This document shows positions 2,521 to 46,444 of a stretch of 64,000 nucleotides of DNA, one piece after another. The DNA lies in assembly GCA_944393375.1 (NCBI GenBank), contig CALXZX010000003.1:3903-67902 (forward strand), in the 5' to 3' direction. This stretch comes from an uncultured Clostridia bacterium (GTDB lineage: Bacteria; Bacillota; Clostridia; TANB77; CAG-508). Below the pieces are notes generated by a model. The model did no database searches. It saw only the letters and a list, made by a program, of their open reading frames with translations, and was not told the origin of the DNA. The position numbers and the translations under genes are program-made. Numbering within the stretch: position 1 is the stretch's first letter; each line of letters begins with the position of its first letter.

Positions 2521-4086
2521 ATGAATATTATGTGCAATGTAATTATAATAGGAGCAGGACCAGCAGGATTGACAGCTGCTTATGAATTATCAAAAAATGA
2601 AAAATATAAAGTAATTATGTTAGAGGAGTCTGAAGATGTTGGAGGAATATCTAAAACTATCAAATATAAGCAAAATAGAATGGATATAGGAGGACATAGA
2701 TTTTTTTCAAAGGATGAAACTATTATGAATTTCTGGAAAGAAATCATGCCTTTACAAGGAGAAAAAGCATTTGATGATAAAATATTGGGGAGAACAGCAG
2801 AATTGGAACAAAATGGACCAGACCCAGAAAAAGAAGATAATGTTATGTTGATAAGACATAGGATTTCAAGAATATATTATGCAAGAAAGTTTTTTGATTA
2901 TCCAATTGAAATTAAACCAGAAACCTTTAAAAATATGGGACTAAAAAAGACAATACAAGCAGGATGTAGTTATCTAAAAAGTAGTATATTTAAAAGAAAA
3001 GAAAATTCACTAGAAGACTTTTATATTAATCGATTTGGAAAAGTATTATATCAAATGTTTTTTGAAAAATACACAGAAAAAGTATGGGGAAGACATCCAA
3101 GTCAAATTTCACCAGATTGGGGAAAGCAACGTGCCAAAGGACTTTCAATAGCGACAATCTTAAAAGATATGGTTTATAAAATTTTAAAAATAAAAAATAA
3201 CAAAAATGTGGAAATATCTTTAATAGAAAAATTTTGGTATCCCAAATATGGACCTGGACAATTATGGGAGAGACTTGCTCAAATAATAGAGAAAAAAGGA
3301 GTAATGATAAAACGTGGATATAAAGTGCAAAAAATCATAAAACAAAATGGAAAGATAAAATCAGTAATATGTTTACATGATGGAAATGAAGAAGAATTTG
3401 CAGGAGATATATTTATATCTTCAATGCCTTTAAAAAATTTGGTAGAGAATATAAAACAGGAACAAGTACCAGAAAATATATTAGACATTGCAAGTAACTT
3501 ACCATATAGAGACTTTATAACCATAGGAATCTTGGTAGATAAATTAAAAATAAAAAATGAAACAACTATAAAAACACTAGGGGATATAGTACCAGATTGT
3601 TGGATATATGTGCAAGAACCAGATGTGAAAGTTGGAAGGATACAAATCTTTAATAATTGGTCACCATATTTAGTAGAAAAACCAAAAGAAAATGTTTGGA
3701 TTGGTTTAGAATATTTTTGCAAAGAAAATGATGACTTGTGGAATATGTCTGAAGAAGATTTTAAAAATATGGCAATAAATGAATTGACAAAAATAGGAAT
3801 ATTAGAAAATACGACAATGGTTAAAGATGTTCATATAGAAAAAATAAAAAAGGCTTATCCAGCATATTTTGATACATATGAAAAAATAGATGAATTGATA
3901 AAATACCTAAATGAAATAGAAAATTTATATTGTATAGGAAGAAATGGACAGCATAGATATAATAATATGGACCACGCAATGTTAACAGCAATAGAAGCAG
4001 TTAAAGATATAAAAGAAAATAGAAAAGACAAATCAAATATTTGGAAGGTAAATACAGAAAAAAGATATCATGAGATAAAAAGGTAA
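2521..4086 (+). CDS. NAD(P)/FAD-dependent oxidoreductase (amine-oxidase / UDP-galactopyranose-mutase-like fold)
   Basis: N-terminal dinucleotide-binding motif [16 protein letters not shown]...LEESEDVGG and GGHRFF. The start could be 2503 or 2521. Confidence 0.7.
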
Positions 4087-7498: not shown

Positions 7499-10201
7499 AT
7501 GGATAATTTTGTTTTAATAGATGGGAATAGTATTATGAACAGAGCATTTTATGGAATTATGGGAAGTAAAATGCTAACAACAAGAGATGGAAAGTATACA
7601 AATGCTGTATATGGCTTTTTAGCAATTTTGTTTAAATTAATAGAAGATACGAATCCCAAATATATGGCTGTGGCATTTGACCTAAAAGCACCAACAGCAA
7701 GACATAAATTATATGAAGGATATAAAGCAAATCGAAAAGGAATGCCAGATGAACTTGCAGAACAAATGCCATTAATCAAAGAAATATTAAGAGCTATGAA
7801 TATTGATATTGTTGAAAAAGAAGGGTATGAAGCAGATGATGTTTTAGGAACACTTTCTAGATATGGAGAAAACCAAGGACTTCATGTTACCATATTATCA
7901 GGAGATAGAGATACCTTTCAATTAGCGACAGATAATGTAACCATTAGAATTCCTAGAACAAAAGGTGGAAAAACAGAAACAGATTTATTTGATAGAAACA
8001 AAATATTGGAAACTTATGGCATAGAACCGAAACAATTAATCGAGGTAAAAGGATTACAAGGTGACAGTTCAGATAATATACCAGGTGTTCCAGGAATTGG
8101 AGAAAAAACAGCATTATCTTTAATTCAAAAATATGGTTCTATTGACAATCTATATGATAAAATAGAAAAAAATGAAGATGATTTGAAAGGAAAGCAAAGA
8201 GAAAAGATTAAAGATAATAAAGAATTAGCAGAATTATCCAAAACATTAGGAACGATTAATTTAGAAGTACCAATAGAAGATACATTAGAACAATTCAAAG
8301 TAGAAGAATGGGATAAAGAAAAAGTATTAACACTATTTAAAGAATTAAATTTTAATCGATATATTGAAAGATTCCATTTAACAGGAGAAAAAGATGATGG
8401 GGAAGAAGAAAACTATAAAATAGAATTTAAGACGGTTGAAAAATCAATAGAAGAAATCATGGATATTATAAAAGAACAAAAAAATATGGTCTTTTATTTA
8501 CAAACAGAAACAGACCAATTACCTGAAAATATTATAAAAGAAAAAATAACAGGAATGAGTCTATATAATCCAGATACTCAGGAAGCTTATTATATAAAAT
8601 TAAATCAAGAGAAAATAACAAAATTAAAAGACATATTCGAAGATGCAAATATAAAAAAGACAAGTATCAATTTAGCAAAAGTATATATTTTATTAAAACA
8701 AGTAGACATTACATTAGAAGGAATTGAAAATGATATATCTATTGGAGCATATATTTTAAATCCAACAAATAATAAATTAGACCTTAAAAATTTAGCAATG
8801 CAATATTTAGAATTGGATATAGAAGAATATATAGGAGAAGAAGATAATCAAAAACAAATGACTTTATTTGAAGAAAATGATACTCAAAAAGATAAAAAGG
8901 ATTTAGAAAAATATACTTTGCATGCGTATGTCATTGAAAAAATAAACATTATGATTTTACAAAAATTAAAAGAAACTAATAGCTTTGACTTATATACGAA
9001 TATTGATATGCCAACAGTAGAGGTTCTATCTAGTATGCAATGGAATGGAATGTATGTAGATGAACGAGAACTAAGTGCATTTGGAGAAGAACTGACTTCA
9101 CAAATTGAAGTTTTGACAAAGGTAATTCATGAAATGGCAGGAGAAGAATTTAATATTAATTCTACAAAACAATTAGGAGAAATTCTTTTTGAAAAAATGA
9201 AATTACCAGTTATTAAGAAAACAAAAAATGGATATTCTACAGATGTAGATGTTTTAGAAAAGCTAAAAAGAGAAGAGCCAATTATTGGAAAGATATTAGA
9301 GTATAGACAATTAATGAAATTAAATTCTACATATGTAGAAGGATTAAAACCATTTATTAATCCAAAAACCAAAAGAATTCACTCCTTTTTCCATCAAACC
9401 ATAACAGCAACAGGAAGAATTAGTTCAACAGAGCCTAATTTGCAAAATATTCCTACTAGGTTTGAGTTGGGAAAAAGAGTAAGAAAAGTATTTAAACCAG
9501 AAGAAGGAAAAGTCTATATTGATGCAGACTATTCACAAATAGAATTAAGAGTATTGGCACATATTTCAGAAGATAAACATATGATAGATGCTTTTAACCA
9601 TAATGAAGATATTCATAAACAAGCAGCTTCAAAAGTTTTTAAAACACCAATTGATGAAGTAACCAAAGAACAAAGAAGTAATGCAAAAGCTGTAAATTTT
9701 GGAATTGTTTATGGAATTAGTGATTTTGGATTGGCAGAGCAACTAGGAATTTCTAGAAAAAAAGCAAAACAATATATAGATGAATATTTAACAGAGTATG
9801 CAGGAATAAAAGAATTTATGGAGAATATTATTGAAAAGACAAAAGAACAAGGATATGTTGAAACTTTATTCCACAGAAGAAGATATGTACCAGAATTGAA
9901 TTCAAAAAATTATATGGTAAGACAATTTGGAAATAGAGTAGCAATGAATACACCAATTCAAGGAACAGCAGCTGACATCATGAAAATAGCCATGATTAAT
10001 GTAAATAAAGAATTGAAAAAAAGAGATTTAAAAGCTAAGATTATTTTACAAGTACATGATGAAATGATGATAGAAGCACCAGAAAGTGAAAAAGAAGAAG
10101 TAAAAGATATCATGAAAAAGGAAATGGAGTCTGCAATACAATTAAAAATACCACTTGTTGCAGAAATATCAGAAGCAAAAAATTGGTATGATTGTAAATG
10201 A
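7499..10201 (+). CDS. polA: DNA polymerase I
   Basis: 900 aa. 5'-nuclease N-terminus (LIDGNSIMNRAFYG), pol motifs DYSQIELRVLAH and QVHDE. RBS aaggagg. Confidence 0.95.
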   Translation: MDNFVLIDGNSIMNRAFYGIMGSKMLTTRDGKYTNAVYGFLAILFKLIEDTNPKYMAVAFDLKAPTARHKLYEGYKANRKGMPDELAEQMPLIKEILRAMNIDIVEKEGYEADDVLGTLSRYGENQGLHVTILSGDRDTFQLATDNVTIRIPRTKGGKTETDLFDRNKILETYGIEPKQLIEVKGLQGDSSDNIPGVPGIGEKTALSLIQKYGSIDNLYDKIEKNEDDLKGKQREKIKDNKELAELSKTLGTINLEVPIEDTLEQFKVEEWDKEKVLTLFKELNFNRYIERFHLTGEKDDGEEENYKIEFKTVEKSIEEIMDIIKEQKNMVFYLQTETDQLPENIIKEKITGMSLYNPDTQEAYYIKLNQEKITKLKDIFEDANIKKTSINLAKVYILLKQVDITLEGIENDISIGAYILNPTNNKLDLKNLAMQYLELDIEEYIGEEDNQKQMTLFEENDTQKDKKDLEKYTLHAYVIEKINIMILQKLKETNSFDLYTNIDMPTVEVLSSMQWNGMYVDERELSAFGEELTSQIEVLTKVIHEMAGEEFNINSTKQLGEILFEKMKLPVIKKTKNGYSTDVDVLEKLKREEPIIGKILEYRQLMKLNSTYVEGLKPFINPKTKRIHSFFHQTITATGRISSTEPNLQNIPTRFELGKRVRKVFKPEEGKVYIDADYSQIELRVLAHISEDKHMIDAFNHNEDIHKQAASKVFKTPIDEVTKEQRSNAKAVNFGIVYGISDFGLAEQLGISRKKAKQYIDEYLTEYAGIKEFMENIIEKTKEQGYVETLFHRRRYVPELNSKNYMVRQFGNRVAMNTPIQGTAADIMKIAMINVNKELKKRDLKAKIILQVHDEMMIEAPESEKEEVKDIMKKEMESAIQLKIPLVAEISEAKNWYDCK

Positions 10202-10287
10202 TTTTAAATGTTTCTTCATTCATTAGCAAACAAAATAAAATGATGTGAAAATATTAGGGAGTTTAAAATCGAAAAGGAGAGGAAATT

Positions 10288-10857
10288 TTGTTGAAAAACA
10301 AATATAAAATTATAATTGGTACGGCTATTATGATAATCATAGTAGTCATACTATTTGTTCTGTTTAAAGATAAATTATTAAAAATACTATACCCTAAAAC
10401 ATATAGTGAAATTATATCAGTCTATGCAGAAGAATATGATGTAGAAGAAAATTTAATATATGCAGTCATAAAAGCAGAAAGTAATTTTAATAGTGAAGCA
10501 GTTTCTAATAGAGATGCAATTGGACTAATGCAAATTGTAGAAGAAACAGCTATTGATGTTGCTAATAAAAACCAGATAGATGTAGATACTGAAAATATAG
10601 TAGAAGAATTATTAGATATTGATAATAATATTAATATAGGAACAAAATATCTTTCAACATTATTAACACAATATGGAAATATAGAAGTAGCATTGGCAGC
10701 ATATAATGCAGGTATTGGAACTGTAAACAATTGGATAGAAAAGCAAGTCATACAAGCAGATGGCTCAGATATTGAAAATATACCATATAAAGAAACAAAT
10801 AATTATGTCAGAAAAATATTAAGAGACTATGGTGTATATAATGAGTTATATGGATAA
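10288..10857 (+). CDS. Membrane-anchored lytic transglycosylase (SLT domain)
   Basis: N-terminal TM segment, then AESNFNSEAVSNRDAIGLMQI...AYNAG, the SLT catalytic-Glu and AYNAG motifs. TTG start after ggagagg. Confidence 0.8.
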   Translation: MLKNKYKIIIGTAIMIIIVVILFVLFKDKLLKILYPKTYSEIISVYAEEYDVEENLIYAVIKAESNFNSEAVSNRDAIGLMQIVEETAIDVANKNQIDVDTENIVEELLDIDNNINIGTKYLSTLLTQYGNIEVALAAYNAGIGTVNNWIEKQVIQADGSDIENIPYKETNNYVRKILRDYGVYNELYG

Positions 10858-10858
10858 T

Positions 10859-10893
10859 GGGACAATTGGGGACGTTTCTTTTTGGACATTTTT
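10859..10893 (+). repeat. REP-like intergenic repeat, copy R1 (GGGACAATTGGGGACGTTTCTTTTTGGACATTTTT)
   Basis: Starts 2 nt after the stop of the SLT gene. Near-identical to the copies at 15123, 16094(-), 40431, 46023 and 56144(-). Confidence 0.9.
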
Positions 10894-10919: not shown

Positions 10920-11411
10920 ATGGCAAGAAAAGTTTTAAATATTGTAATATATATGATGATATTTGTCATCCTAATATTGTTACTATATAGCATCATACAA
11001 AGGAAAACAACTGGTGAGAAATATACCAATCTATTTGGTTATACATTTTTAGAAGTAGTGACAGGAAGTATGGCAGGAACAATTGAAATAGGTGATGGCG
11101 TTATTGTTAAACTAACTTCAGATATAAAAGAAAAAGATATTATTGTATATAAAAAAGAAGAAATTTTAATTACACATCGATTAATAAAAATGGAAGATAA
11201 TAGCTTACTTACAAAAGGAGATGCCAATAATGTGCAAGATGACCCAATAACAAAAGATGTTGTTATTGGAAAAGTGATTTTTGTGATACCCAATATCCAT
11301 TTTTGGAAAAAAGCAATAGTTGTAATTTTAATTATTTTAATTTGTATATATGTTATTGCACAACAAATAATAAATAAAAAAACAAATGTACTAAAGGAGG
11401 AAGAAAAATGA
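10920..11411 (+). CDS. sipW: Signal peptidase I, SipW (ER/archaeal S26B) type
   Basis: N- and C-terminal TM segments. Motifs VVTGSMAGT (Ser nucleophile), ITHRLI (His) and TKGDANNVQDD. Confidence 0.8.
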   Translation: MARKVLNIVIYMMIFVILILLLYSIIQRKTTGEKYTNLFGYTFLEVVTGSMAGTIEIGDGVIVKLTSDIKEKDIIVYKKEEILITHRLIKMEDNSLLTKGDANNVQDDPITKDVVIGKVIFVIPNIHFWKKAIVVILIILICIYVIAQQIINKKTNVLKEEEK

Positions 11412-12060: not shown

Positions 12061-13111
<1,051 letters not shown>

Positions 13112-13320: not shown

Positions 13321-14610
13321 ATGAAAACAGTAGCATTTATTACATTGGGATGTAAAGTAAATCAATATGAAACAAATGCCATGATACAACAATTTATAGA
13401 AAAGGGGTATGAGGTTGTAGAACATAGCAAAAAAGCGGATATCTATATTGTCAATACTTGTACAGTAACTAACATGTCAGATAGAAAATCTAGACAAATG
13501 TTAAGAAGGGTAAAAGAATTAAATAAAAAGGCAATTGTTGTTGCTTGTGGTTGTTATGCGCAGGTGGCAAAAGAAGAATTAGAAAAGATAGAGGAAATCA
13601 ACTTAGTATTAGGAAATAATGAAAAAAAAGAAATCGTAGAATATGTTGAAAAGTACATAAAAAGTGAAATTCCAGAAATACAAACAGAAGATGTTATGAA
13701 GCGAAAAGAGTTTGTAGAATTTGGTGATATCACATTTACAGAAAAAACAAGAGCGGTTATCAAAATACAAGATGGTTGTGATCGTTTTTGCTCTTATTGT
13801 ATCATTCCATATGCACGAGGAAGAGTAAGAAGTAGAAAACCAGAACATATTTTATCTGAAATTCAAAAGATTGCAAAAGAAGGTATAAAGGAAGTTGTTA
13901 TCACAGGAATTCATATTGCTTCATATGGGAAAGACTTTAAGAAAGAATATCGACTAATTGATTTGTTAGAAGAAATGAATGAGATAGAAGGAATCGAAAG
14001 AATTCGATTAGGTTCTATAGAGCCTTTATTAATAACAAAAGAGTTTGTAAGTCGATTAGAAAAATTATCTAAAGTATGTCACCAGTTTCATTTATCATTA
14101 CAAAGCGGCTGTGATGAAACATTAAAAAGGATGAATAGAAGATATACGATAGAACAATTTAAAGAGATAACAAAATTATTAAGAAAAACATTTGAAGATG
14201 CCATTTTAACTACAGATATCATTGTAGGATTTCCAGGAGAAAGTGAGGAAGAATTTGAAAAAACATATGCTTTTCTAGAAAAAATAAAATTCTATAAAAT
14301 GCATGTATTCAAATATTCACCAAGAAAAGGAACAAAAGCAGCAATTATGCCAAATCAGATTGATGGAAATAAAAAAGAAGAAAGAAGCAGAAAATTGATA
14401 GAATTATCCAATAAAAATGAAAAGATATATAATGAACAATATGTAGGAAAAGAACTAGAAATCCTTTTTGAGGAAGAAAAAAATGGTATATGGCAAGGGC
14501 ATACGAAAAATTATATATTAGCACATTACAAAACAGAGGAAAATTTAGAAAATAAAATCATAAAGTTACAAGGCATAGGTGCAGAAGATGAATATATTAT
14601 TGTGAATTAA
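13321..14610 (+). CDS. mtaB: tRNA t6A37 methylthiotransferase MtaB (radical SAM, MiaB-like)
   Basis: MKTVAFITLGCKVNQYETNAM N-terminus, radical-SAM CDRFCSYCIIP motif, TRAM-like C-terminus. Confidence 0.8.
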   Translation: MKTVAFITLGCKVNQYETNAMIQQFIEKGYEVVEHSKKADIYIVNTCTVTNMSDRKSRQMLRRVKELNKKAIVVACGCYAQVAKEELEKIEEINLVLGNNEKKEIVEYVEKYIKSEIPEIQTEDVMKRKEFVEFGDITFTEKTRAVIKIQDGCDRFCSYCIIPYARGRVRSRKPEHILSEIQKIAKEGIKEVVITGIHIASYGKDFKKEYRLIDLLEEMNEIEGIERIRLGSIEPLLITKEFVSRLEKLSKVCHQFHLSLQSGCDETLKRMNRRYTIEQFKEITKLLRKTFEDAILTTDIIVGFPGESEEEFEKTYAFLEKIKFYKMHVFKYSPRKGTKAAIMPNQIDGNKKEERSRKLIELSNKNEKIYNEQYVGKELEILFEEEKNGIWQGHTKNYILAHYKTEENLENKIIKLQGIGAEDEYIIVN

Positions 14611-14804
14611 ATCTATAAAAGAATTTGAAAAAATATCTTCGAAATGTAACCAAAGTTTAGCTAAAATGGTAAGATGTAACAAAAATGTAATCATTTTGTA
14701 ATTAATATTTAATAAAAAAAGAAGTGAAAAAGTATTGATAAATAACAAAAGATATAGTATAAATAATATAGTAAGGTATAATAAGCTACAAAGGAGGAAA
14801 TTAA

Positions 14805-15116
14805 ATGGCAGATATAAGAGAAGAAAATAATGTATTTGGTGGAGTAGAATTTAATAATGAAAATGGTAATAATGGACAAGTACAAGCTTCAAATGGAAAA
14901 AATTTACCTGTAAAACAAGGATTTTGGTCAAAATTCAAAACATTCTGGTTCCAAGAAATTGATTGGAACAAAGAAATAAAAGTAGAATTAACACCATATC
15001 AACAAAAAGTGGAAAATGAAATAAATGAATTCTTACATCAAGAAATTACTTGGGAAAAAGTACATGATTTCTTATTCCAAGAAATAAGATTTGGAAAAAA
15101 GAAAACAGAAGTGTAA
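14805..15116 (+). CDS. Hypothetical 103-aa protein with three F-x-(F/H)-QEI-x-(W/F) repeats
   Basis: RBS aaaggagg. Internal repeats FWFQEIDW, FLHQEITW and FLFQEIRF. Confidence 0.55.
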   Translation: MADIREENNVFGGVEFNNENGNNGQVQASNGKNLPVKQGFWSKFKTFWFQEIDWNKEIKVELTPYQQKVENEINEFLHQEITWEKVHDFLFQEIRFGKKKTEV

Positions 15117-15122
15117 TAAAAA

Positions 15123-15153
15123 GGACAATTAGGGACGTTTCCGTTTGGACATT
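15123..15153 (+). repeat. REP-like repeat, copy R2 (AGGACAATTAGGGACGTTTCCGTTTGGACATT)
   Basis: Sequence identity to the repeat family. An extra GGGAACG unit follows at 15163-15170. Confidence 0.85.
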
Positions 15154-15282
15154 TTTCTAAATGGGAACGCTTTTTGAAATTATATATGAAATTAAAAGGA
15201 AAGTGTAGCAAAAAATATGAAAATATGCTATACTTTTCTTGTTTTAGGGGCAAATAAAAAATTAATGTAAGGAGAGATGTAT

Positions 15283-16056
15283 ATGCCCCGTGTAGCAAGA
15301 AAAATTAGTAATACAAAAGTATATCATATCATTTTAAGAGGAAATGATAGACAAGATATATTTTATGATGAGCAAGACTACAAAAAATTTTTGAAAATAA
15401 TGAAGTTGACAAAGGAAAAATATCAATATGAAATATATGTATATTGTTTTATGGCCAATCATGTACATTTAGTTTTTTATGACAAAAATAATCAAATTTC
15501 TAAGATAATACAAAGTATAGCAATATCTTATTCAAGTTATTTTTCAAAAAAATATAGAAAAGAAGGACATTTATTTCAAAATAGATTTTTAAGTAAAAAC
15601 ATTGAAACAAAAGAATACTTGTATCGTTTATGTAGATATATCCATCAAAATCCATTAAAGGCTGGAATTTCAACTGTAAAAAGATATAAATGGAGTAGCT
15701 ATCGTGAATATATTTATGATGAAAAAATGATAAGTAGAGAATTGATTTTGTCAATGTTTGGTCAAACAAAAAAAGAGGCGATAGAAAATTTTATTATTTT
15801 TCATAGTTATGAGGAAAAAAACATAAATGAAGAAGTAGAATATGAAATTATTGATAAATTAACAGATGAACAGGTAAAGAGGAAAATACAGAAAATATTA
15901 AGCATTGAAGATGTATGGGAAATTCGTACATATAATAAAAAAGTAAGAGATGAAAAAATATATCAATTAAAAAATATAAAAGGAACATCCAAAACACAAC
16001 TTTCAAGGATTTTAGGAATCAATAGAAAAGTAATTGAAAGAGTTATGAAAAATTAA
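15283..16056 (+). CDS. IS200/Y1-family (HUH) transposase-like protein, RAYT-like, with C-terminal HTH tail
   Basis: HUH motif FMANHVHLV. Catalytic-Tyr region CRYIHQNPLKAG. C-terminal TSKTQLSRILGINRKVIERV looks like an HTH. RBS GGAGAG sits 6 nt before the ATG at 15283. Confidence 0.8.
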   Translation: MPRVARKISNTKVYHIILRGNDRQDIFYDEQDYKKFLKIMKLTKEKYQYEIYVYCFMANHVHLVFYDKNNQISKIIQSIAISYSSYFSKKYRKEGHLFQNRFLSKNIETKEYLYRLCRYIHQNPLKAGISTVKRYKWSSYREYIYDEKMISRELILSMFGQTKKEAIENFIIFHSYEEKNINEEVEYEIIDKLTDEQVKRKIQKILSIEDVWEIRTYNKKVRDEKIYQLKNIKGTSKTQLSRILGINRKVIERVMKN

Positions 16057-16093
16057 AAATTTTAAAAAATAGAAATTACAAAAAAATTAATAA

Positions 16094-16152
16094 AAATGTC
16101 CAAAAAGAAACGTCCCCAATGGACCCAAATGCCCAATGGACCCAAATGGACA
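16094..16152 (-). repeat. REP-like repeat, copy R3 (inverted), with an internal 17-nt tandem duplication
   Basis: AAATGTCCAAAAAGAAACGTCCCC is the reverse complement of the family core. It is followed by CCCAATGGACCCAAATG x2 (16115-16148). Confidence 0.85.
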
Positions 16153-16165
16153 AAAGGAGAGAAAA

Positions 16166-17530
16166 ATGGCAAAAAGTAAAACGATTTTTGTATGTAGTGA
16201 ATGTGGAAATGAATCTAGTAAATGGCTTGGAAAATGTCCAGCATGCAATAGTTGGAATACATTTTATGAACAAAAGGTAGTGGAAACAAAAGCAGGAGGA
16301 CATAAAGATTTAGCTAAAAGTGAAAACAAACCACAAAAATTGAATTCTTATGAAGCAAAAGAAACATTAAGAACTTCAACAGGTTTTGGAGAATTGGATA
16401 GAGTATTAGGTGGGGGACTTGTAAAAGGTTCTCTTGTGTTACTTGGTGGAGAGCCTGGAATTGGAAAATCTACTTTGATTTTACAAATATGTGATAAAGT
16501 AAAAGGCGAAGGAAAGGTTTTATATGTTTCTGGAGAAGAATCAGCAGAACAAATTAAAATGAGAGCTGATAGATTAGGTATTAACAATGATGATATTCTA
16601 TTTTTAGGAGAAACAGATATAGATGTTGTCAATCAAGCGATTATAGAAATTAATCCAAAACTTGTAATTATTGATTCTATTCAAACCATGTATTCAGAAG
16701 AAATTTCAGCAGCTGCAGGAAGTGTAAGCCAAGTAAGAGAAATTACTTCACAAGTTATGAGAGTTTGTAAATCTAGAGCAATTACAACAATCATTATAGG
16801 ACATGTAACCAAAGAAGGAAATATAGCAGGCCCAAGAGTTTTAGAACATATGGTAGATACAGTGCTGTATTTAGAAGGAGAAAGGTATTTTTCATATAGA
16901 GTCCTTAGAGGTGTTAAGAATAGATTTGGTTCAACCAATGAAATTGGTATGTTTGAAATGAATGAAGAAGGAATGTGTGAAATTACAAATCCTTCAGATA
17001 TTTTAATTTCTGAAAGAGAAGATAATCCAGCAGGCTCTTGCATTGTGTCTAGCATAGAAGGAACAAGAGCAATTTTAATAGAATTACAAGCATTAACAAC
17101 ACAAAGTATTTTTGGATTTCCAAAAAGAACGGCAAATGGAACAGATTATAATAGACTTGCCTTATTAATTGCTGTTCTAGAAAAAAGAGCAGGGATTATG
17201 TTAGGAAGTCAAGACATCTACTTAAATCTAGTAGGTGGTATTAGAGTAAATGAACCTTCTATTGACTTAGGTATGATGATGGCAGTGGTTTCAAGTTTTA
17301 AAAATGTACCAATTCCAAAAGACATGGTCATTATTGGAGAAGTTGGTTTGACAGGAGAAGTAAGAAGAATAAATCTAATTGGCAAAAGGTTGAAAGAAGC
17401 AGAGAAATTGGGATTTAAGAGTTGTATTATTCCAGAATCTAACAAAAAAGACTTGAAAGAAACATATAAATTAGATATAATAGGTGTCAGCAATATTAAT
17501 GAAGCAATGAAAAAGATTGGATTAAAATAG
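16166..17530 (+). CDS. radA: DNA repair protein RadA/Sms
   Basis: Zn ribbon CSECG...CPAC, Walker A GEPGIGKST, KNRFG motif, Lon-like C-terminus. RBS aaaggagag precedes the ATG at 16166. The ORF-track start at 16136 lies inside repeat R3. Confidence 0.95.
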   Translation: MAKSKTIFVCSECGNESSKWLGKCPACNSWNTFYEQKVVETKAGGHKDLAKSENKPQKLNSYEAKETLRTSTGFGELDRVLGGGLVKGSLVLLGGEPGIGKSTLILQICDKVKGEGKVLYVSGEESAEQIKMRADRLGINNDDILFLGETDIDVVNQAIIEINPKLVIIDSIQTMYSEEISAAAGSVSQVREITSQVMRVCKSRAITTIIIGHVTKEGNIAGPRVLEHMVDTVLYLEGERYFSYRVLRGVKNRFGSTNEIGMFEMNEEGMCEITNPSDILISEREDNPAGSCIVSSIEGTRAILIELQALTTQSIFGFPKRTANGTDYNRLALLIAVLEKRAGIMLGSQDIYLNLVGGIRVNEPSIDLGMMMAVVSSFKNVPIPKDMVIIGEVGLTGEVRRINLIGKRLKEAEKLGFKSCIIPESNKKDLKETYKLDIIGVSNINEAMKKIGLK

Positions 17531-17568
17531 TTTGATTGCATAATTAAAGGGGAGAAGGGAGATTAATT

Positions 17569-18642
17569 TTGAAAAAGGTAAAAGAAGATAACATTACATC
17601 TGTTTTAAAATTAATAGCTCCAGGAACACCAATAAGAGATGGTCTAGAAAATATATTGAGGGCAAAGACAGGAGCATTATTATTAATTACAGATAATGGA
17701 GAAGTCTTAAAAGAAGTGGTTGATGGTGGTTTTGTTATTAATGAAGATTATACATCATCAAAATTATATGAATTAGCAAAAATGGATGGTGCAATTGTAT
17801 TAAGTGGAGATATGAAGAAAATTCTATATGCTAATGCACAGTTAATTCCAGAACATGAAATCCAAACAACAGAAACAGGAACAAGACATAGAACAGCAGA
17901 GAGAACTGCAAAGCAGACAGGAGAATTGGTGATTAGTATTTCACAAAGAAGAAATATTATTACAGTCTTTAAAGGAAATGATAGATATGTTTTAGAAGAT
18001 ACAGATGTTGTATTAAATAAAGCAAATCAAGCAATTCAAACATTAGAAAAATATAAAAAAGTATTTGATAATAAGTTAAACATATTGAATGAATATGAAT
18101 TTAATGATATAGTAACATTGCAAAATGTTGTACTTGCCATCCAAAGAGCAGAAATGGTTATGCGAATTGTAGAGGAAATACAAAGACAAATTTATGAACT
18201 TGGAGATGATGGACGACTAGTAAAAATGCAACTAGATGAATTAATTGGAGGACTTGAAAAAGAAGAAAGTTTGATTATAAAAGACTATGTAGTTAAAAAG
18301 AAAAAATCTTCTGATAAAATAATAGAAGAATTAAAAGACTTAGAATATGAAGAATTGTTGAAAGAATCTTCTATTGCTAAATTATTAGGATATGAGTATT
18401 TTGATAATTATGATGAAGTTGCTGTTTACCCAAAAGGATATCGAATTTTAAGCAAAGTACCAAGAATGCCTAATAATATTGTAGAGAACTTAGTAGATTC
18501 ATTTAAGTCTTTTCAACATATATTGGCAGCAGATATTGAAAGTTTAGATGAAGTTGATGGTATTGGAGAAGTAAGAGCGAGAACCATTAAACAATCATTA
18601 AAAAGAATGCAAGAACAATTTGTTTTTGATAATATGATATAA
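17569..18642 (+). CDS. disA: DNA integrity scanning protein DisA (diadenylate cyclase)
   Basis: LKLIAPGTPIRDGLENILRAKTGALLLI, DGAIVL and RHRTAER DAC motifs. C-terminal HhH (VDGIGEVRARTI). Conserved radA-disA order. TTG start. Confidence 0.9.
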   Translation: MKKVKEDNITSVLKLIAPGTPIRDGLENILRAKTGALLLITDNGEVLKEVVDGGFVINEDYTSSKLYELAKMDGAIVLSGDMKKILYANAQLIPEHEIQTTETGTRHRTAERTAKQTGELVISISQRRNIITVFKGNDRYVLEDTDVVLNKANQAIQTLEKYKKVFDNKLNILNEYEFNDIVTLQNVVLAIQRAEMVMRIVEEIQRQIYELGDDGRLVKMQLDELIGGLEKEESLIIKDYVVKKKKSSDKIIEELKDLEYEELLKESSIAKLLGYEYFDNYDEVAVYPKGYRILSKVPRMPNNIVENLVDSFKSFQHILAADIESLDEVDGIGEVRARTIKQSLKRMQEQFVFDNMI

Positions 18643-18679
18643 TAATCTAAAGATTAAAAGGAAAGGAAATGTGAAGTAA

Positions 18680-19474
18680 ATGGGAAAATTTAAAAATATT
18701 ATATGGATAGTTGCTTTAATTATTTTAATTGTTTTAATAGGAATTGTTAGTTATGGATATTATAGAAATGCAACAATGGAGGTTACAAGACCGGTTGCTA
18801 CAATGGAAGTAGAAAATTTTGGAACGATTAAATTTGAATTATATCCAGAATATGCTCCAGAAACAGTAGCAAACTTCATAACATTAGCAAATAGAGGATT
18901 TTATGATGGATTAACATTCCACAGAATTGTAAAAGACTTTATGATTCAAGGTGGAGACAAAAATGGAGATGGAACAGGATTAGCAACAACAAGTGATTTG
19001 AAAGATGATGGTGATGATACAGAATATACAATAAAAGGTGAATTTATAGCAAATGGAGTGGATAATAAAATGCAATTTGAAGAAGGAGTTGTGGCAATGG
19101 CAAGATCTGATTACACCAATTATTCTTCAACATTAGCAGAAGAATCTTATAATTCAGGAAGTTCTCAATTCTTTATCATGACAGCAGAAAACACAGGATT
19201 AAATGGACAATATACTTCTTTTGGTAAAGTAATAGAAGGTATGGATATTGTACATCAAATAGAAGGTGTTGAAGTAAAAGCGGCAGATGATGCAGAAACA
19301 ACAGGAAATACGGAAGTAAGTACACCAGTAAACCCACCAGTTATTACATCTATTAGAGTAGAAACAAATGGAGTAGATTATGGATTACCTGAAACATTAA
19401 CACCATTTGATTATATGTCATGGTTATATCAACAATATGGAATAGACCCAAGTAGTATGAGTACTACAGAATAA
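18680..19474 (+). CDS. Membrane-anchored peptidyl-prolyl cis-trans isomerase (cyclophilin type)
   Basis: N-terminal TM segment, then FELYPEYAPETVANFITLANRGFYDGLTFHRIVKDFMIQGGD. Confidence 0.9.
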   Translation: MGKFKNIIWIVALIILIVLIGIVSYGYYRNATMEVTRPVATMEVENFGTIKFELYPEYAPETVANFITLANRGFYDGLTFHRIVKDFMIQGGDKNGDGTGLATTSDLKDDGDDTEYTIKGEFIANGVDNKMQFEEGVVAMARSDYTNYSSTLAEESYNSGSSQFFIMTAENTGLNGQYTSFGKVIEGMDIVHQIEGVEVKAADDAETTGNTEVSTPVNPPVITSIRVETNGVDYGLPETLTPFDYMSWLYQQYGIDPSSMSTTE

Positions 19475-19560
19475 TAAATATAATTTTGTAAATACTATTT
19501 ATAAAATATTAATAAAGTTTTAAAATTTTACAAAAAAACAAATAAAAATTTCTAAAATGG

Positions 19561-19590
19561 TTGACAAGATGGGGTGAAATAGGTTAAAAT
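19561..19590 (+). promoter_or_regulatory. Putative sigma-A promoter of the tRNA-His/tRNA-Gln pair
   Basis: TTGACA (19561-19566), an 18-nt spacer, then TAAAAT (19585-19590), about 35 nt upstream of tRNA-His. Confidence 0.45.
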
Positions 19591-19626
19591 AAGAAATGTG
19601 CTAATAAAAAGGTGCACGTAAACTAT

Positions 19627-19704
19627 GGTGGATGTAGCGTAGTTGGTTAACGCGCCAGTTTGTGGCACTGGAGACCGTGGGTTCGAGTCCCATCTTCCAC
19701 CCCA
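19627..19704 (+). tRNA. tRNA-His (anticodon GTG), with encoded G-1 and CCA
   Basis: Hand-folded cloverleaf: anticodon arm CCAGT-TTGTGGC-ACTGG, T arm GTGGG-TTCGAGT-CCCAT, extra 5' G opposite discriminator C. One T-T mismatch in the acceptor stem. Confidence 0.85.
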
Positions 19705-19713
19705 TGTATATAT

Positions 19714-19788
19714 TGGGCTGTAGCCAAGCGGTAAGGCACCAGACTTTGACTCTGGCATGCGCTAGTTCGAATCTAGCCAGCCCAGCCA
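19714..19788 (+). tRNA. tRNA-Gln (anticodon TTG), CCA encoded
   Basis: TGGGCTG acceptor, anticodon arm CCAGA-CTTTGAC-TCTGG, T loop GTTCGAATC. Confidence 0.9.
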
Positions 19789-19796
19789 ATAATATC

Positions 19797-19830
19797 AAGA
19801 CTTTCGAGATTTTCGAAAGTCTTATTTTTT
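19797..19830 (+). terminator. Intrinsic terminator after the tRNA pair
   Basis: AAGACTTTCGA / TCGAAAGTCTT perfect 11-bp stem followed by ATTTTTT. Confidence 0.85.
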
Positions 19831-19991
19831 GTCAAAATTAATCAAACTTGTCCAAATTTTTATTTTATTAGGATTTATCCAAATACTTCCAGGGATAGAA
19901 CAGACATTAGCAAGGTATGATTAAAAAATGGATGTAGTAGTTGACAATAGTGAAAATATGAAATAAAATTTTAGTAAAAAAGGAGGAAACT

Positions 19992-20276
19992 ATGATAAAA
20001 CATATTGTTATTTGGAAATTTAAAGAAAATCAAGAAGAAACTATGAAACAATTTCTAGAAGGATTAAATCATTTAAAAGATATTATTCCACAAATTAAAT
20101 ATATGGAAACTGGGATAAATATAAATCCAGAAAATGAATATGATGCAATATTAATTTCAGAATTTGAAACTATGGAAGATTTAGAAATATATAAAAATCA
20201 TCCAGAACATATTAAAGTATCAAATTTATGCAAATCTATTAGAATAGATAGACAAGCAATTGATTATGAGGTTTAA
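19992..20276 (+). CDS. Dabb-family (stress-responsive A/B barrel) protein
   Basis: MIKHIVIWKFKE...YKNHPEHIKV pattern. RBS aaaggagg. Confidence 0.75.
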   Translation: MIKHIVIWKFKENQEETMKQFLEGLNHLKDIIPQIKYMETGININPENEYDAILISEFETMEDLEIYKNHPEHIKVSNLCKSIRIDRQAIDYEV

Positions 20277-20280
20277 AACA

Positions 20281-20853
20281 ATGGATTTAGAAAAAATAAA
20301 AAATGCAAAGACGAAATATATAGGCAAAGAAATAGAATATTTTAAAGAAATAAGTTCAACACATATCTATGCAAAAGAAATTGCATTGCAAGAAAAACAT
20401 AGTGGGAAGATAATAATAGCGGAAACACAGACAAATGGAATTGGGACCAAGGGAAGAACATGGTATACTGGAGAAAGCAAAAATATTGCAATGACAATTA
20501 TATTAAAACCACAATGTAAAATTAGTAGATTAGAAGGTTTAACTGTAAAAATAGCAGAATGTATGCAAAAAGCAATTTATGATGCATATGAAATTTCATT
20601 ACAAATAAAAAAGCCAAATGATTTAACTTTAAATGGTAAAAAGGTATGTGGAATATTGACAGAAATAAATACAATATCTGAAAAGATTAATTATTTATTA
20701 ATTAGTTTAGGAATTAATGTAAATGAAGAAATATTTTCAAAGGAAACAAAAAATCTTGCAACATCGTTAAAAAAAGAGTTTGGAAAAGATTTTAGTAGAG
20801 AAGATATTATTAAAAAATTTATTGAAATTCTAGAGAAGGAAATAGAATGCTAG
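20281..20853 (+). CDS. birA: Biotin--[acetyl-CoA-carboxylase] ligase (group I, no HTH)
   Basis: GIGTKGRTW (variant of GRGRxGRxW) and KKPNDLTLNGKKVCGILTE motifs. Start taken at the ATG at 20281, after GAGG. Confidence 0.8.
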   Translation: MDLEKIKNAKTKYIGKEIEYFKEISSTHIYAKEIALQEKHSGKIIIAETQTNGIGTKGRTWYTGESKNIAMTIILKPQCKISRLEGLTVKIAECMQKAIYDAYEISLQIKKPNDLTLNGKKVCGILTEINTISEKINYLLISLGINVNEEIFSKETKNLATSLKKEFGKDFSREDIIKKFIEILEKEIEC

Positions 20854-40426: not shown

Positions 40427-40430
40427 TTTT

Positions 40431-40472
40431 GTCCATTTGGGACAATTGGGGACGTTTCTGTTTGGACATTTT
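40431..40472 (+). repeat. REP-like repeat, copy R4 (GTCCATTTGGGACAATTGGGGACGTTTCTGTTTGGACATTTT)
   Basis: Begins 5 nt after the glyQS stop. Identical core to R1. Confidence 0.9.
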
Positions 40473-44379: not shown

Positions 44380-46020
44380 GTGAAAATACAATATAAAGAT
44401 AAGGTAATGGAATTAGATAAACCAATGACAATTAGTGAATTATTAAAAGAAGAAATTGAAAATAGTGAATATACAGTCGTAGCTGCTGTTTTTAATAATG
44501 AATATAAAAATTTAGAATCTATGATAGAAGAAGATGGAAAAATAGAATTAATTGATATTTCTTCAAAGGAAGGAATGAAAGTATATAGAAGGACATTGGT
44601 ATATATAGTAGGAAAAGCTTTTGAAAAGATTTGCCCTAATAAAAAAATGGAAGTCAATTATCAATTATCAAATGCCATGTTTTGTGATTTAATAAATCAA
44701 GAAGTAACAGATACATTTTTAGAAGAACTAACACAAGAAGTGAGAAGAATTGTAAAAGAAAATCTTCCTATTAGACAAGTCATTATGAATAGGGAAGAAG
44801 CTACAAAATTTTTTAATGAAACAGAAAGCTCAAAAGGAAGATTACAATTAGATTTAGAAGGCAATAATGAAATTTATATGTATTATTGTGAAGATTATTA
44901 TAACTATTGTTATGGAACATTGGCTAATCGAACAGGGGTTACAAAAATCTTTGAAATAGTAAAATATAATAATGGATTTTTAGTTAGATATCCAAGTCAA
45001 AGTGATCCAGAAAGAATGCCTAAGTTTGTAAAAAATAAAAAATTAGCTTGGGCTATGGAAGAATATGATGATATCAACAAAATCATGAAAATTGAAAGAG
45101 TATATCGTATAAATGAAGCCATAAAAGAAGGAACAATTAAAGATATTATCTTATTAGCAGAGGCTTTACATGAAAAGAAAATAGCAAAAATTGCAGATAA
45201 TATAGCCAAAAACAAAAATATAAAAATGATATTGATTGCAGGTCCATCATCATCAGGAAAAACAACTTTTGCGCAAAGATTAGGTATTCAATTAAAATTA
45301 AACAGAATAAAACCAGTAACCATTTCTGTAGATAATTATTTTGTAGAAAGAAAAGACACACCAAGAGATGAAAATGGAGATTATGATTTTGAATGTTTAG
45401 AAGCAATAGATTTAGAACTATTTAATGACCATTTAACAAGATTATTAAATGGCGAAGAAGTAGAAATGCCAGAATTTGATTTCCATGTAGGTACCAAAAG
45501 ATATAATGGTAAAAAATTAAAATTAGAAGATGATGAAGTATTGGTTATAGAAGGAATTCATTGTTTAAATGATAAATTAACCAGTAAAATACCAGCAGAA
45601 CAAAAATATAAAGTGTATATTAGTGCACTAACAGTACTAAATTTAGATAGATTTAACAGAATATCTACAACAGATACAAGATTAATTAGAAGAATTGTAA
45701 GAGATTATCAATTTAGAGGATATTCAGCAAAACAAACAATTGCTACTTGGAATAAAGTAAATGAAGGAGAAAAGAAAAATATATTCCCATTCCAAGAAGA
45801 ATCAAACTTTATATTTAATACATCATTAGTATATGAAATAGGAGCTTTAAAACCAATTATTATGCCATTATTAAAAGAAATTACGAAAGAAGACCCAGAA
45901 TACGCAGAAGCATCTAGACTAATGAATATGTTAAAATATTTTGAAGAAATATCAAAAGAATTTGTACCAAATAATTCATTATTAAAAGAATTTTTAGGTG
46001 GAGGAGATTTTAAATATTAA
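44380..46020 (+). CDS. Uridine/nucleoside kinase-family protein with an N-terminal TGS/ThrRS-SAD-like extension
   Basis: P-loop LIAGPSSSGKTTFAQRL and a PRK/uridine-kinase-like C-terminal half. GTG start at 44380 after aaaggagg. Confidence 0.75.
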   Translation: MKIQYKDKVMELDKPMTISELLKEEIENSEYTVVAAVFNNEYKNLESMIEEDGKIELIDISSKEGMKVYRRTLVYIVGKAFEKICPNKKMEVNYQLSNAMFCDLINQEVTDTFLEELTQEVRRIVKENLPIRQVIMNREEATKFFNETESSKGRLQLDLEGNNEIYMYYCEDYYNYCYGTLANRTGVTKIFEIVKYNNGFLVRYPSQSDPERMPKFVKNKKLAWAMEEYDDINKIMKIERVYRINEAIKEGTIKDIILLAEALHEKKIAKIADNIAKNKNIKMILIAGPSSSGKTTFAQRLGIQLKLNRIKPVTISVDNYFVERKDTPRDENGDYDFECLEAIDLELFNDHLTRLLNGEEVEMPEFDFHVGTKRYNGKKLKLEDDEVLVIEGIHCLNDKLTSKIPAEQKYKVYISALTVLNLDRFNRISTTDTRLIRRIVRDYQFRGYSAKQTIATWNKVNEGEKKNIFPFQEESNFIFNTSLVYEIGALKPIIMPLLKEITKEDPEYAEASRLMNMLKYFEEISKEFVPNNSLLKEFLGGGDFKY

Positions 46021-46022
46021 TT

Positions 46023-46053
46023 GGGACAATTGGGGACGTTTCTGAAATGTCCC
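46023..46053 (+). repeat. REP-like repeat, copy R5 (3' half inverted, forming GGGACGTTT-ctg-AAATGTCCC)
   Basis: GGGACAATTGGGGACGTTTCTGAAATGTCCC, directly after the kinase stop and abutting the RBS of the next gene. Confidence 0.85.
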
Positions 46054-46070
46054 AAACAGAAGGAGTAAAA

Positions 46071-46385: not shown

Positions 46386-46444
46386 ACGTTGGGGACAGGC
46401 CAAATCGTTCAAAATTTGAACGATTTGGCCTGTCCCTAACGTTT
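46384..46444. repeat. 61-nt near-perfect palindrome (repeat R6) acting as a bidirectional terminator; it overlaps both convergent stop codons
   Basis: AAACGTTGGGGACAGGCCAAATCGTTCAA-aat-TTGAACGATTTGGCCTGTCCCTAACGTTT, a 29-bp stem with one G-U pair. It shares TTGGGGAC with the REP-like family. Confidence 0.85.

Follow-up and report, generated by a model that had tools for sequence, protein, structure and literature searches.

Is a lone transposase gene that lies between inverted copies of a short repeat a mobile element, or is it a resident gene whose product acts on repeats scattered through its host genome? This question is raised by a locus in a 64,000 nt stretch of DNA from an uncultured gut Clostridia bacterium (G+C content 27.7%), the whole of which is referred to here as the window. 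The gene, located on the + strand at 15283-16056, codes for a Y1/HUH tyrosine transposase-like protein of 257 amino acids (aa) in which a catalytic domain resembling that of RAYT enzymes is joined to a C-terminal tail. RAYT-type enzymes together with their repeats are a leading example of domesticated transposases that shape bacterial intergenic DNA. To our knowledge, RAYT biochemistry so far derives entirely from one proteobacterial enzyme that acts on repetitive extragenic palindromic (REP) sequences of the GTAG type. Our analysis indicates, with a probability of roughly 70%, that the window contains a TIRtron-type locus, that is, a vertically inherited, single-copy and domesticated Y1/HUH single-stranded DNA (ssDNA) endonuclease of the TIRYT class whose gene is bracketed by inverted copies of its cognate repeat.

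The coding sequence is intact and, as the original prediction had stated, it specifies both an HUH motif (FMANHVHLV) and a catalytic tyrosine region (CRYIHQNPLKAG). We prefer the ATG at 15283 over the one at 15277 as the start codon because an MPR start is common to all homologues. The sole Pfam domain found is Y1_Tnp (residues 13-123, E 1.5e-15). For this protein NCBIfam ranks REP_Tyr_transpos (NF047646; 67.3 bits, cut-off 80) above the model for IS200 (24 bits, cut-off 55). A search of the PDB with a profile built from 24 homologues returned a single match, the E. coli TnpA-REP structure 4ER8 (E 0.02). The same structure is the best Foldseek hit of an AlphaFold model of the protein (predicted local distance difference test score, pLDDT, of 90.7; Foldseek E 7e-7, TMt 0.69), followed by the IS608, ISDra2 and IS200 TnpA proteins at E values of ~1e-5. 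Neither the HUH motif nor the catalytic Tyr119 varies across the 24 aligned homologues, and W137, S138 and S139, which form a WSS motif beside the catalytic tyrosine (YKWSSY), are fixed in 24 of 24. The protein has a RAYT-like catalytic fold, comprising approximately residues 1-150, in which the HUH motif and the catalytic tyrosine are intact. A tblastn search against plasmids gave 13 weak matches, each labeled "transposase" or unannotated, and thus provided no useful annotation.

Several observations establish that this is a resident gene rather than an insertion sequence (IS) in its own clade. The window contains one copy of the gene, and sequence comparison with eight orthologues gives dN/dS values of 0.18-0.35, indicating that it is under purifying selection. 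Homologues are full-length across a smooth range of identity that extends from 100% to below 40%. In relatives with 84%, 63% and 55% identity the gene lies directly 5' of radA, its conserved 3' neighbor in the window (16166-17530, + strand, followed by disA at 17569-18642). This adjacency recurs in approximately 30 species-representative genomes of uncultured Clostridia, over which the identity of the Y1 protein falls from 86% to 41% as that of RadA falls from 99% to 69%. Identity of the Y1 protein to the window sequence correlates with that of DisA (Spearman 0.86) and of RadA (0.61), which is the pattern predicted by vertical co-descent. An exception is one lineage of 62-64% identity (loci L011, L012 and L021) in which the Y1 gene occurs in another context. 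A multi-copy transposase with identical flanks, which would have spoken against domestication, was not observed in this clade. No tnpB gene lies beside the Y1 gene, whose immediate neighbors are a 103-aa open reading frame (ORF) and radA; in this respect the original prediction was correct.

The repeat that flanks the gene is readily recognized in the window. A 24 nt core, GGGACGTTTCnnTTTGGACATTTT, has five exact matches (10869 +, 15132 +, 16116 -, 40449 + and 56166 -) against an expectation by chance of 0.00 as derived from 100 shuffles; these five copies share a specified core of 22 bases, and a sixth, variant copy is located at 46020-46055. All six copies are intergenic, as had been claimed for the dispersed repeat. 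The left flank copy, R2 (15123-15155, + strand, GGACAATTAGGGACGTTTCCGTTTGGACATTTT), lacks the 5' stem arm and adjoins the stop codon of the upstream ORF, with its core (15132-15155) ending 127 nt before the Y1 start codon. The right flank copy, R3 (16093-16152, - strand), is inverted relative to R2 and reads TGTCCA-...-GGGGACGTTTCTTTTTGGACA on the - strand. Its core (16093-16116) begins 36 nt past the Y1 stop codon and its outer arm, TGGACA on the + strand (16147-16152), adjoins the ribosome-binding site of radA. At 83% complementarity over 40 nt, the flanking arms (15123-15162 and 16086-16125) form an inverted pair, so that both the + orientation of the upstream copy and the inversion of the downstream copy are borne out. 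R3 additionally contains an exact tandem duplication at 16115-16148, also noted originally, in which the 17 nt unit CCCAATGGACCCAAATG occurs twice on the + strand (16115-16131 and 16132-16148, 100% identical). Locus L001, which represents the same species and was assembled independently from another sample, has the duplication too; it is missing from L003, an orthologue with 84% identity.

GTCC and GGAC blocks make up the repeat in the window species and the relatives closest to it, giving it a modular build. The complete form, TGTCCA-TTT-GGGACAATTG-GGGACGTTTC-TnTTT-GGACATTTT, is represented by two dispersed copies, R4 (40430-40472, + strand, with TGTTT as the variable module) and R5 (56143-56186, - strand). 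R1 (10856-10892, + strand), which lies between genes for an SLT-domain and an S24-like protein, is without a 5' arm. The variant copy R6 (46020-46055, + strand) reads GGGACAATTG-GGGACGTTTC-T-GAAATGTCCC, of which GGGACGTTTC-T-GAAATGTCCC forms a tight hairpin. When folded as ssDNA and compared with 200 shuffles, R5 (z -4.1) and R6 (-7.7 kcal/mol, z -2.9) are matched by none of the shuffled sequences, while R4 is marginal with 6 of 200 shuffles folding as well (z -2.0). The repeat in the window species has drifted to a modular form of which only some copies still fold. An Rfam search of the window and of six loci rich in canonical hairpins returned only tRNAs and one group II intron, and the repeat is therefore not a described RNA family.

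The bracket is a property of the family and not of the window alone. A scan that used one genome per species detected at least 587 relatives, and all 80 that were retrieved belong to Bacillota, including Clostridia metagenome-assembled genomes (MAGs), Sporomusa, Desulfosporosinus, Syntrophomonas, Alkaliphilus, Bacillus and others. In 59 of the 83 loci with enough flanking sequence, the upstream flank aligns better to the reverse complement of the downstream flank than to the direct flank or to 20 shuffles. Over the 400 nt that precede the gene, 60 of 84 loci have the motif GGGAC[AG][GT] solely on the + strand, and on the downstream side 57 of 84 have it solely on the - strand; the motif occurs 790 times in these 84 loci where approximately 300 occurrences are expected. 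Flanking repeats are thus not absent from orthologous loci. They are again mutually inverted, have a sequence that is specific for the lineage and recur elsewhere within their own 20-kb locus. For example, the flanking repeat is GGGGACAGTCCCCATGCCTAT..TGTCGCAT..GGGGACAGA in L009, GGGACGTTTCCTTTTGCTCCTTTTGGAGCAATTAGGGACACATCT in L013 and TGTCGCAT-15 nt-ATGCGACA in L011. The REPtron-like architecture that was originally proposed (a single Y1 gene under purifying selection, in a fixed position, with an inverted bracket of a dispersed repeat that is kept at orthologous loci) is consequently well supported.

In most lineages the repeat is a hairpin in which a genome-specific stem of 6-10 bp surrounds the conserved loop (G)GGGACG(G/T)TTC(T). 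Stem arms are TGAGTCA / TGACTCA in Sporomusa (L082), AACACA / TGTGTT in L054, AAGCAG / CTGCTT in L053, TGTCGC / GCGACA in L034, TGGTAATT / AATTACCA in L042 and ATGTCTCA / TGAGACAT in L018, where the simple hairpin as a whole reads ATGTCTCATTGGGGACGTTTCTTTTTGAGACAT. A perfect stem of at least 5 bp surrounds 179 of 341 motif instances, compared with 38 of 341 after arms were swapped between instances, and there are 30 distinct 6-bp stems among 42 loci. Retention of pairing through these sequence changes speaks for a folded single strand as what is recognized. The option of counting covariation formally among selected hairpins was dropped as circular, since the units would be picked for their pairing, and the arm-swap control was used in its place.

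These hairpins also mark the ends of a multi-copy unit in at least one lineage of the family. Sporomusa acidovorans (L082) contains three 896-bp hairpin-gene-hairpin units within 10 kb (approximately 903-1798, 7739-8634 and 9931-10826) that are ~99% identical. Their identity begins and ends exactly at the outer feet of the hairpins (TGAGTCAGGGGACGGTTCCTTGACTC ... GAGTCAAGGAACCGTCCCCTGACTCA), and the sequences that surround them are unrelated. The original remark that there are no IS end hairpins was accordingly misleading, as the flanking repeats of relatives are hairpins and in S. acidovorans form the exact ends of a multi-copy unit. Bacillus sp. DJP31 (L043) similarly has two 1.3-kb copies with 98.8% identity. 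The family therefore includes IS-like as well as fixed single-copy members, and the window locus belongs to the latter group.

How does this locus relate to known systems? RAYT-like genes with terminal inverted repeats (TIRs) that are not of the GTAG type were named TIRYT, and the corresponding units TIRtrons, by Di Nocera, De Gregorio and Rocco (2013, BMC Genomics 14:522; PMC3733652). As described there, many of the flanking repeats, although not all TIRs, share the sequence GGGGWSAS, some belong to moderately abundant dispersed families, and in some genomes they are dispersed as singles, dimers or clusters. The TIRYT set reaches taxa outside Proteobacteria, for example Acidobacteria (PMC3733652). 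Using sequences transcribed from Additional file 5 of that paper, BLASTP of the window protein gave E values of 1e-36 to 1e-24 against the main TIRYT group (pca_3049 1e-36, gbm_2474 4e-35, dau_2153 5e-30), 7e-13 against the Acidobacteria TIRYT aba_3477, and 2e-9 to 6e-3 against canonical RAYTs. The window protein shares with the TIRYT sequences available there the signature MPR..YH..RGN..Q.F / CLM.NH.HL / G.L.Q.RF.S / RYI..NP.+A / WSS. As in a TIRtron, its gene lies between inverted repeats without GTAG. The family-wide consensus of the repeat motif is GGGGACG(G/T); relative to GGGGWSAS, the window sequence GGGGACGT fits at 6 of 8 positions, while GGGGACAG in L009, GGGGACAC in L013 and 18 loci of the flank comparison fit exactly. 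A difference is found in the C-terminal tail, which does not align with the published tails, alignments ending at approximately residues 140-185. It is thus well supported that the locus is a Firmicute member of the described TIRYT/TIRtron class and not a new kind of system. The original suggestion of an uncharacterised REP/RAYT pair does not hold in this respect, as the class has been named as TIRYT/TIRtron and appears, in what is available of two later surveys, as TnpAY1 subclass 2.1 and RAYT Group 1.

The first of these surveys (Quentin, Siguier, Chandler and Fichant 2018, BMC Genomics 19:475; PMC6006769) equates TIRYT with TnpAY1 subclass 2.1, the second largest subclass in that survey. 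It is defined by a C-terminal helix-turn-helix (HTH) or DnaA_C-like domain (Bac_DnaA_C, HTH_23 or HTH_28) and a serine motif near the catalytic tyrosine, and the available text of the survey attributes to it no IS features and reports no REP-like sequences around its genes. Like the proteins of this subclass, the window protein is long, has an extra C-terminal helical domain and has a serine motif (WSS) beside the tyrosine, and by comparison with the published description rather than with the hidden Markov models of the subclass it probably belongs to subgroup 2.1.2. In contrast to that account, many Bacillota have hairpin repeats on both sides of the gene and also at dispersed sites. In the second survey (Bertels, Gallie and Rainey 2017, GBE 9:2110; PMC5581495), RAYT Group 1 is the largest and most widely distributed group and includes Clostridia. 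The survey, whose analysis is centered on Proteobacteria, describes the Group 1 genes as single-copy and housekeeping-like, with flanking 16-mers that are moderately abundant at ~12 per replicon. The window locus fits this description, in as far as the comparison is one of descriptions. The conserved-loop and variable-stem hairpin, the promoter palindrome considered below, the position beside radA and the deletion allele were not found in the available portions of PMC3733652, PMC6006769 and PMC5581495. A literature search recovered no later paper that uses the TIRYT name and no TIRYT assay, and a full-text search for the loop sequence gave no bacterial context, only unrelated matches to eukaryotic primers.

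Comparison with the two better known relatives is also informative. The E. coli enzyme TnpA-REP (a RAYT, YafM; 4ER8), which according to work cited in PMC6006769 cleaves and rejoins REP ssDNA, is like the window protein encoded by one resident Y1 gene associated with inverted copies of a dispersed repeat. It is the best structural match of the catalytic domain, yet the two share only 16% identity. The window protein misses the NCBIfam equivalog cut-off for canonical RAYTs and has an extra C-terminal domain. In contrast to a canonical REPtron (subclass 2.2) the feet of the hairpin bear neither GTAG nor GTGG, and the conserved element GGGGACGKTTC is instead located in its loop. With IS200/IS605 TnpA proteins (IS608, ISDra2) the locus shares the HUH/Y1 fold, hairpin ends and, in Sporomusa, a multi-copy unit. 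It differs from them in having inverted-repeat ends in place of left and right hairpins on the same strand, in lacking tnpB, in being a single copy at a fixed locus and in its low IS200 score.

The region 5' of the Y1 gene contains features that may be regulatory. A terminator-like hairpin directly after the small upstream ORF (15136-15175, + strand) forms where the core of R2 pairs with TCTAAATGGGAACG (15156-15169), giving 14 pairs and a loop of 6 that is followed by CTTTTT; upon inspection TCTAAATGGGAACG reads as a degenerate inverted partial copy of R2. Further downstream is a palindrome (15200-15237, + strand), AAAGTGTAGCA-N15-TGCTATAC(TTTT), which overlaps a putative extended -10 element, TGCTATACT, located in the downstream arm. 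The -10 hexamer would occupy 15229-15234, and a weak -35 element, TAGCAA, is present 17 nt upstream of the extended -10. A generic promoter consensus scan did not list a promoter at 15200-15237 because this -35 is weak. The palindrome arms, AAAAGTATAGCA and TGCTATAC(TTTT), are invariant in approximately 25 loci in which identity of the Y1 protein declines to ~50%, and are always separated by 15 nt of variable sequence. This palindrome is likely the promoter of the Y1 gene together with a symmetric operator. A conserved box, TAGGGGCA (15245-15252, + strand), is kept in approximately 25 related loci and is situated in the presumed 5' untranslated region (UTR).

A candidate ligand for this operator is the C-terminal tail of the enzyme (approximately residues 190-257). 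That this tail is HTH-like, as had been predicted, can be upheld only in part. The C-terminal 70-100 residues are confidently predicted by AlphaFold to form a helical bundle, with pLDDT values of ~90-97 in the last 60 residues. Resemblance to known HTH domains is weak. Foldseek places DnaA (8BTG), KorA (5CM3) and the DnaA DNA-binding domains 3PVP and 1J1V at the top, with E values of 0.5-2 that are not significant, and Pfam HTH_23 weakly matches 6 of 24 homologues (best E 0.02). A Pfam scan of the isolated 74-aa tail gave nothing even at E 10, and a profile search of the PDB with the tail alignment gave no match under E 0.3. A relationship to DnaA domain IV was considered and not called, as all Foldseek E values exceed 0.5.

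Outside of the bracket, the repeat is dispersed and appears to be subject to turnover. The specified 22-base pattern has exact matches in 71 metagenome stretches, with 11 on a contig of 389 kb, 9 on one of 299 kb and 7 on one of 200 kb. At approximately one exact copy per 30 kb, and with variants included, a genome would therefore contain some tens of copies, perhaps 100 or more. Repeat units in these metagenome genomes have a further 3' module, GTCCATTTTGGGACACATCT, and their 5' block is either ATGTCCATTG, a pairing form, or the inverted form GGGACATTTG. Among 79 distinct copies 65 are intergenic, and many adjoin a ribosome-binding site, examples being R3 at radA and R1 upstream of the gene at 10920. 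In L003 there are copies, for example at 997 and 6360, that have no positional counterpart in the window, and the repeat family has therefore turned over since the two split (dS ~0.43).

A natural deletion of the Y1 gene is present in two contigs from different samples (L105 and L127) that are 96-98% identical to the Y1-bearing L019. The deletion allele (L105 5700-5905 and L127 535-740, corresponding to L019 9820-10870) keeps the small ORF, the left repeat, the promoter palindrome and the 5' UTR, and radA is intact. Its sequence jumps from ATGCTCC to AAATGTCCC and then to the ribosome-binding site of radA; the missing ~0.83 kb takes in the Y1 ORF along with the greater part of the right repeat. 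The junction falls in a CCCC microhomology that coincides with GTCCCC of the right repeat. A cut by the enzyme at GTCCCC was considered as its origin and set aside, as microhomology-mediated deletion explains the CCCC junction equally well. The deletion is recent and confined to one lineage, a pattern expected upon loss of a RAYT, and a second Y1 copy elsewhere in the L105 and L127 genomes is possible.

By analogy with E. coli TnpA-REP and IS608 TnpA, a mechanism can be proposed in which the enzyme, probably as a dimer, would recognize the folded repeat on ssDNA, for example at replication forks. DNA beside the hairpin would be cut and rejoined through a 5'-phosphotyrosine intermediate, with the outcome that solo copies of the repeat may be spread, removed or rearranged while the gene for the enzyme itself remains immobile in this clade. 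The C-terminal helical tail would most likely bind double-stranded DNA, and its target, we would guess, is the invariant palindrome at the promoter of its own gene, an arrangement that would allow autoregulation. Hairpin recognition, cleavage, rejoining and autoregulation by the tail are in this scheme all modeled on these other systems. The known picture of such systems is left unchanged by the TIRtron assignment and is extended to low-GC gut Clostridia. What the locus and its relatives provide is a concrete substrate model for the TIRYT/subclass 2.1 branch, namely a short hairpin whose loop is conserved and whose stems co-vary. They also supply the exact ends of the element in Sporomusa, a candidate autoregulatory operator and natural Y1-minus strains of near-identical genome. 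Binding and cleavage experiments, as well as comparative tests of repeat decay, become straightforward to design.

A more far-reaching version of this reading is that the locus represents a widespread REP-like system of Bacillota that was missed by surveys of subclass 2.1, and that combines recognition of the loop, autoregulation by the tail and an enzyme fixed beside radA and disA. The Y1 enzyme would then recognize the conserved loop GGGGACGKTTC and not a tetranucleotide at the foot, leaving stems free to diverge by lineage. The HTH tail would autoregulate via the promoter palindrome AAAAGTATAGCA-N15-TGCTATAC, and the enzyme of one deep gut Clostridia clade would manage repeats located just 5' of ribosome-binding sites. 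Taken jointly, we view these proposals as possible but doubtful. If true, they would add a distinct mode of recognition and a regulatory circuit to the RAYT world, with natural Y1-deletion strains serving as controls.

A number of observations weigh against a working TIRtron in the window species. R1, R2 and R3 fold as ssDNA no better than shuffled sequences, and because several copies (R1, R2) behave in this manner, hairpin recognition is possibly weakened in this species. Hairpins with the GGGGAC loop lie on opposite strands at the two ends of the locus, which is a misfit with the IS608 model in which both ends are on the same strand. Relative to flanking genes, 25 solo copies have the same and 17 the opposite orientation, without a clear bias. 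Such a bias is what a strictly lagging-strand mechanism would lead one to expect and, as none is clear, no strand targeting can be deduced. Genomes that have lost the Y1 gene still hold many copies of the repeat, so that repeats can outlast this copy of the enzyme for a while; the occurrence of repeats without the gene, which had been named as evidence against the pairing, is thus seen in part, in a deletion that is recent and lineage-specific. The copy number of the gene is based on the 64-kb window and on related loci, and the count of the repeat in the window organism is that of the 64-kb window. Furthermore, assignment of the tail as HTH, while suggested by its modeled structure, is weak, and we infer the binding, cleavage and strand specificity of TIRYT proteins entirely from analogy.

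Of the alternatives, the one that survives best is that the locus is a TIRYT/TIRtron fossil in which the enzyme no longer mobilizes repeats, the gene being kept for a host function that is perhaps linked to radA/disA while the repeat copies are decaying relics. The heterogeneity of the window copies, several of which lack a stem arm and do not fold, would be explained in this way, as would the long fixation of the gene beside radA and disA and the retention of repeats in Y1-deleted strains. However, five window copies have an identical 22-base core, and dozens of near-identical copies are present in related genomes, suggesting recent spread or homogenization. The presence of copies also differs between the window and L003, and the HUH motif and catalytic tyrosine are invariant in the 24 homologues. 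We therefore consider a fossil unlikely and continue to favor a TIRtron in which enzyme and repeat are still paired.

Less probable again is that the protein is a regulator, with its HTH tail binding GGGAC repeats as operators just 5' of ribosome-binding sites, in which case the repeats would constitute a regulon and not mobile DNA. The many copies that adjoin a ribosome-binding site, such as R3 and R1, a helical tail with weak similarity to HTH domains and an invariant palindrome that overlaps the gene's own promoter are all compatible with this idea. It does not account for stems that vary by lineage yet keep their pairing, which points to a folded single strand and not to a duplex operator, nor for catalytic residues that are invariant in a gene under purifying selection. 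Whole units also transpose in Sporomusa, and copies occur in both orientations as well as between convergent genes.

An ordinary autonomous IS of the IS200/IS605 type that is present at this site by chance is largely refuted for this clade and, in our estimation, very improbable. An element of this kind would be expected to encode a Y1_Tnp domain and to have multi-copy relatives such as the units of S. acidovorans and Bacillus sp. DJP31, but the gene is adjacent to radA in ~30 species with its identity declining in step with those of DisA and RadA, is present in one copy in 64 kb, scores 24 against the 55 required of IS200, has inverted-repeat ends and lacks tnpB. Most improbable of all is that the repeats are independent RNA or terminator elements whose adjacency to the Y1 gene is coincidental, for despite the terminator-like hairpin at R2 and the intergenic location of the copies, the bracket has a fixed orientation in ~70% of 84 loci, the repeat changes sequence with the gene lineage and no Rfam family was matched.

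With regard to the surroundings of this TIRtron-type locus, nearly all window genes are coded on the + strand. The order of genes is polA, a gene for an SLT-domain protein, an S24-like gene, maf, mreB, a MiaB-like radical-SAM gene (13321-14610), the 103-aa ORF, the Y1 gene, radA, disA and a gene for a cyclophilin-type peptidyl-prolyl isomerase (Pro_isomerase). The 103-aa ORF (14805-15116, + strand), which lies directly 5' of the Y1 gene throughout the radA-linked clade, matches no Pfam family, is 69-94% identical across that clade and is kept where the Y1 gene is deleted; it is probably not part of the system. The mreB region (12094-13111) is divided into two ORFs of 59 aa (12094-12273) and 289 aa (12242-13111). 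The same split is called in L001, while L003 and relatives like it have a single gene of 336 aa, and the split may reflect a frameshift, a sequencing error or a genuine pseudogene. In L007 and L008, positions 14780-20400, located 3' of the radA-disA-isomerase block, contain an integrase together with KAP NTPase, HEPN and nucleotidyltransferase genes in what looks like a defense-type island. This island is found in some strains of the 84%-identity species, and other strains have different genes at this position.

Two further observations concern repeats. In a Syntrophomonadaceae MAG (L054), a fragment of a group II intron (RF02003) at 3116-3234 is located approximately 30 nt from a hairpin copy at 3263. 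Finally, the window contains two copies (46389-46440 and 54354-54430) of a second, longer palindromic family, TTGGGGAC(A/G)GG(C/T)CAAAT(C/T)GTTCAAA, loop, TTTGAACGATTTGGCC.GTCCC, the feet of which carry the GGGGAC/GTCCCC motif of the Y1-linked repeat. A copy of this family between convergent genes could function as a bidirectional terminator, and the family may consist of a related repeat doubled in the manner of a REPIN.

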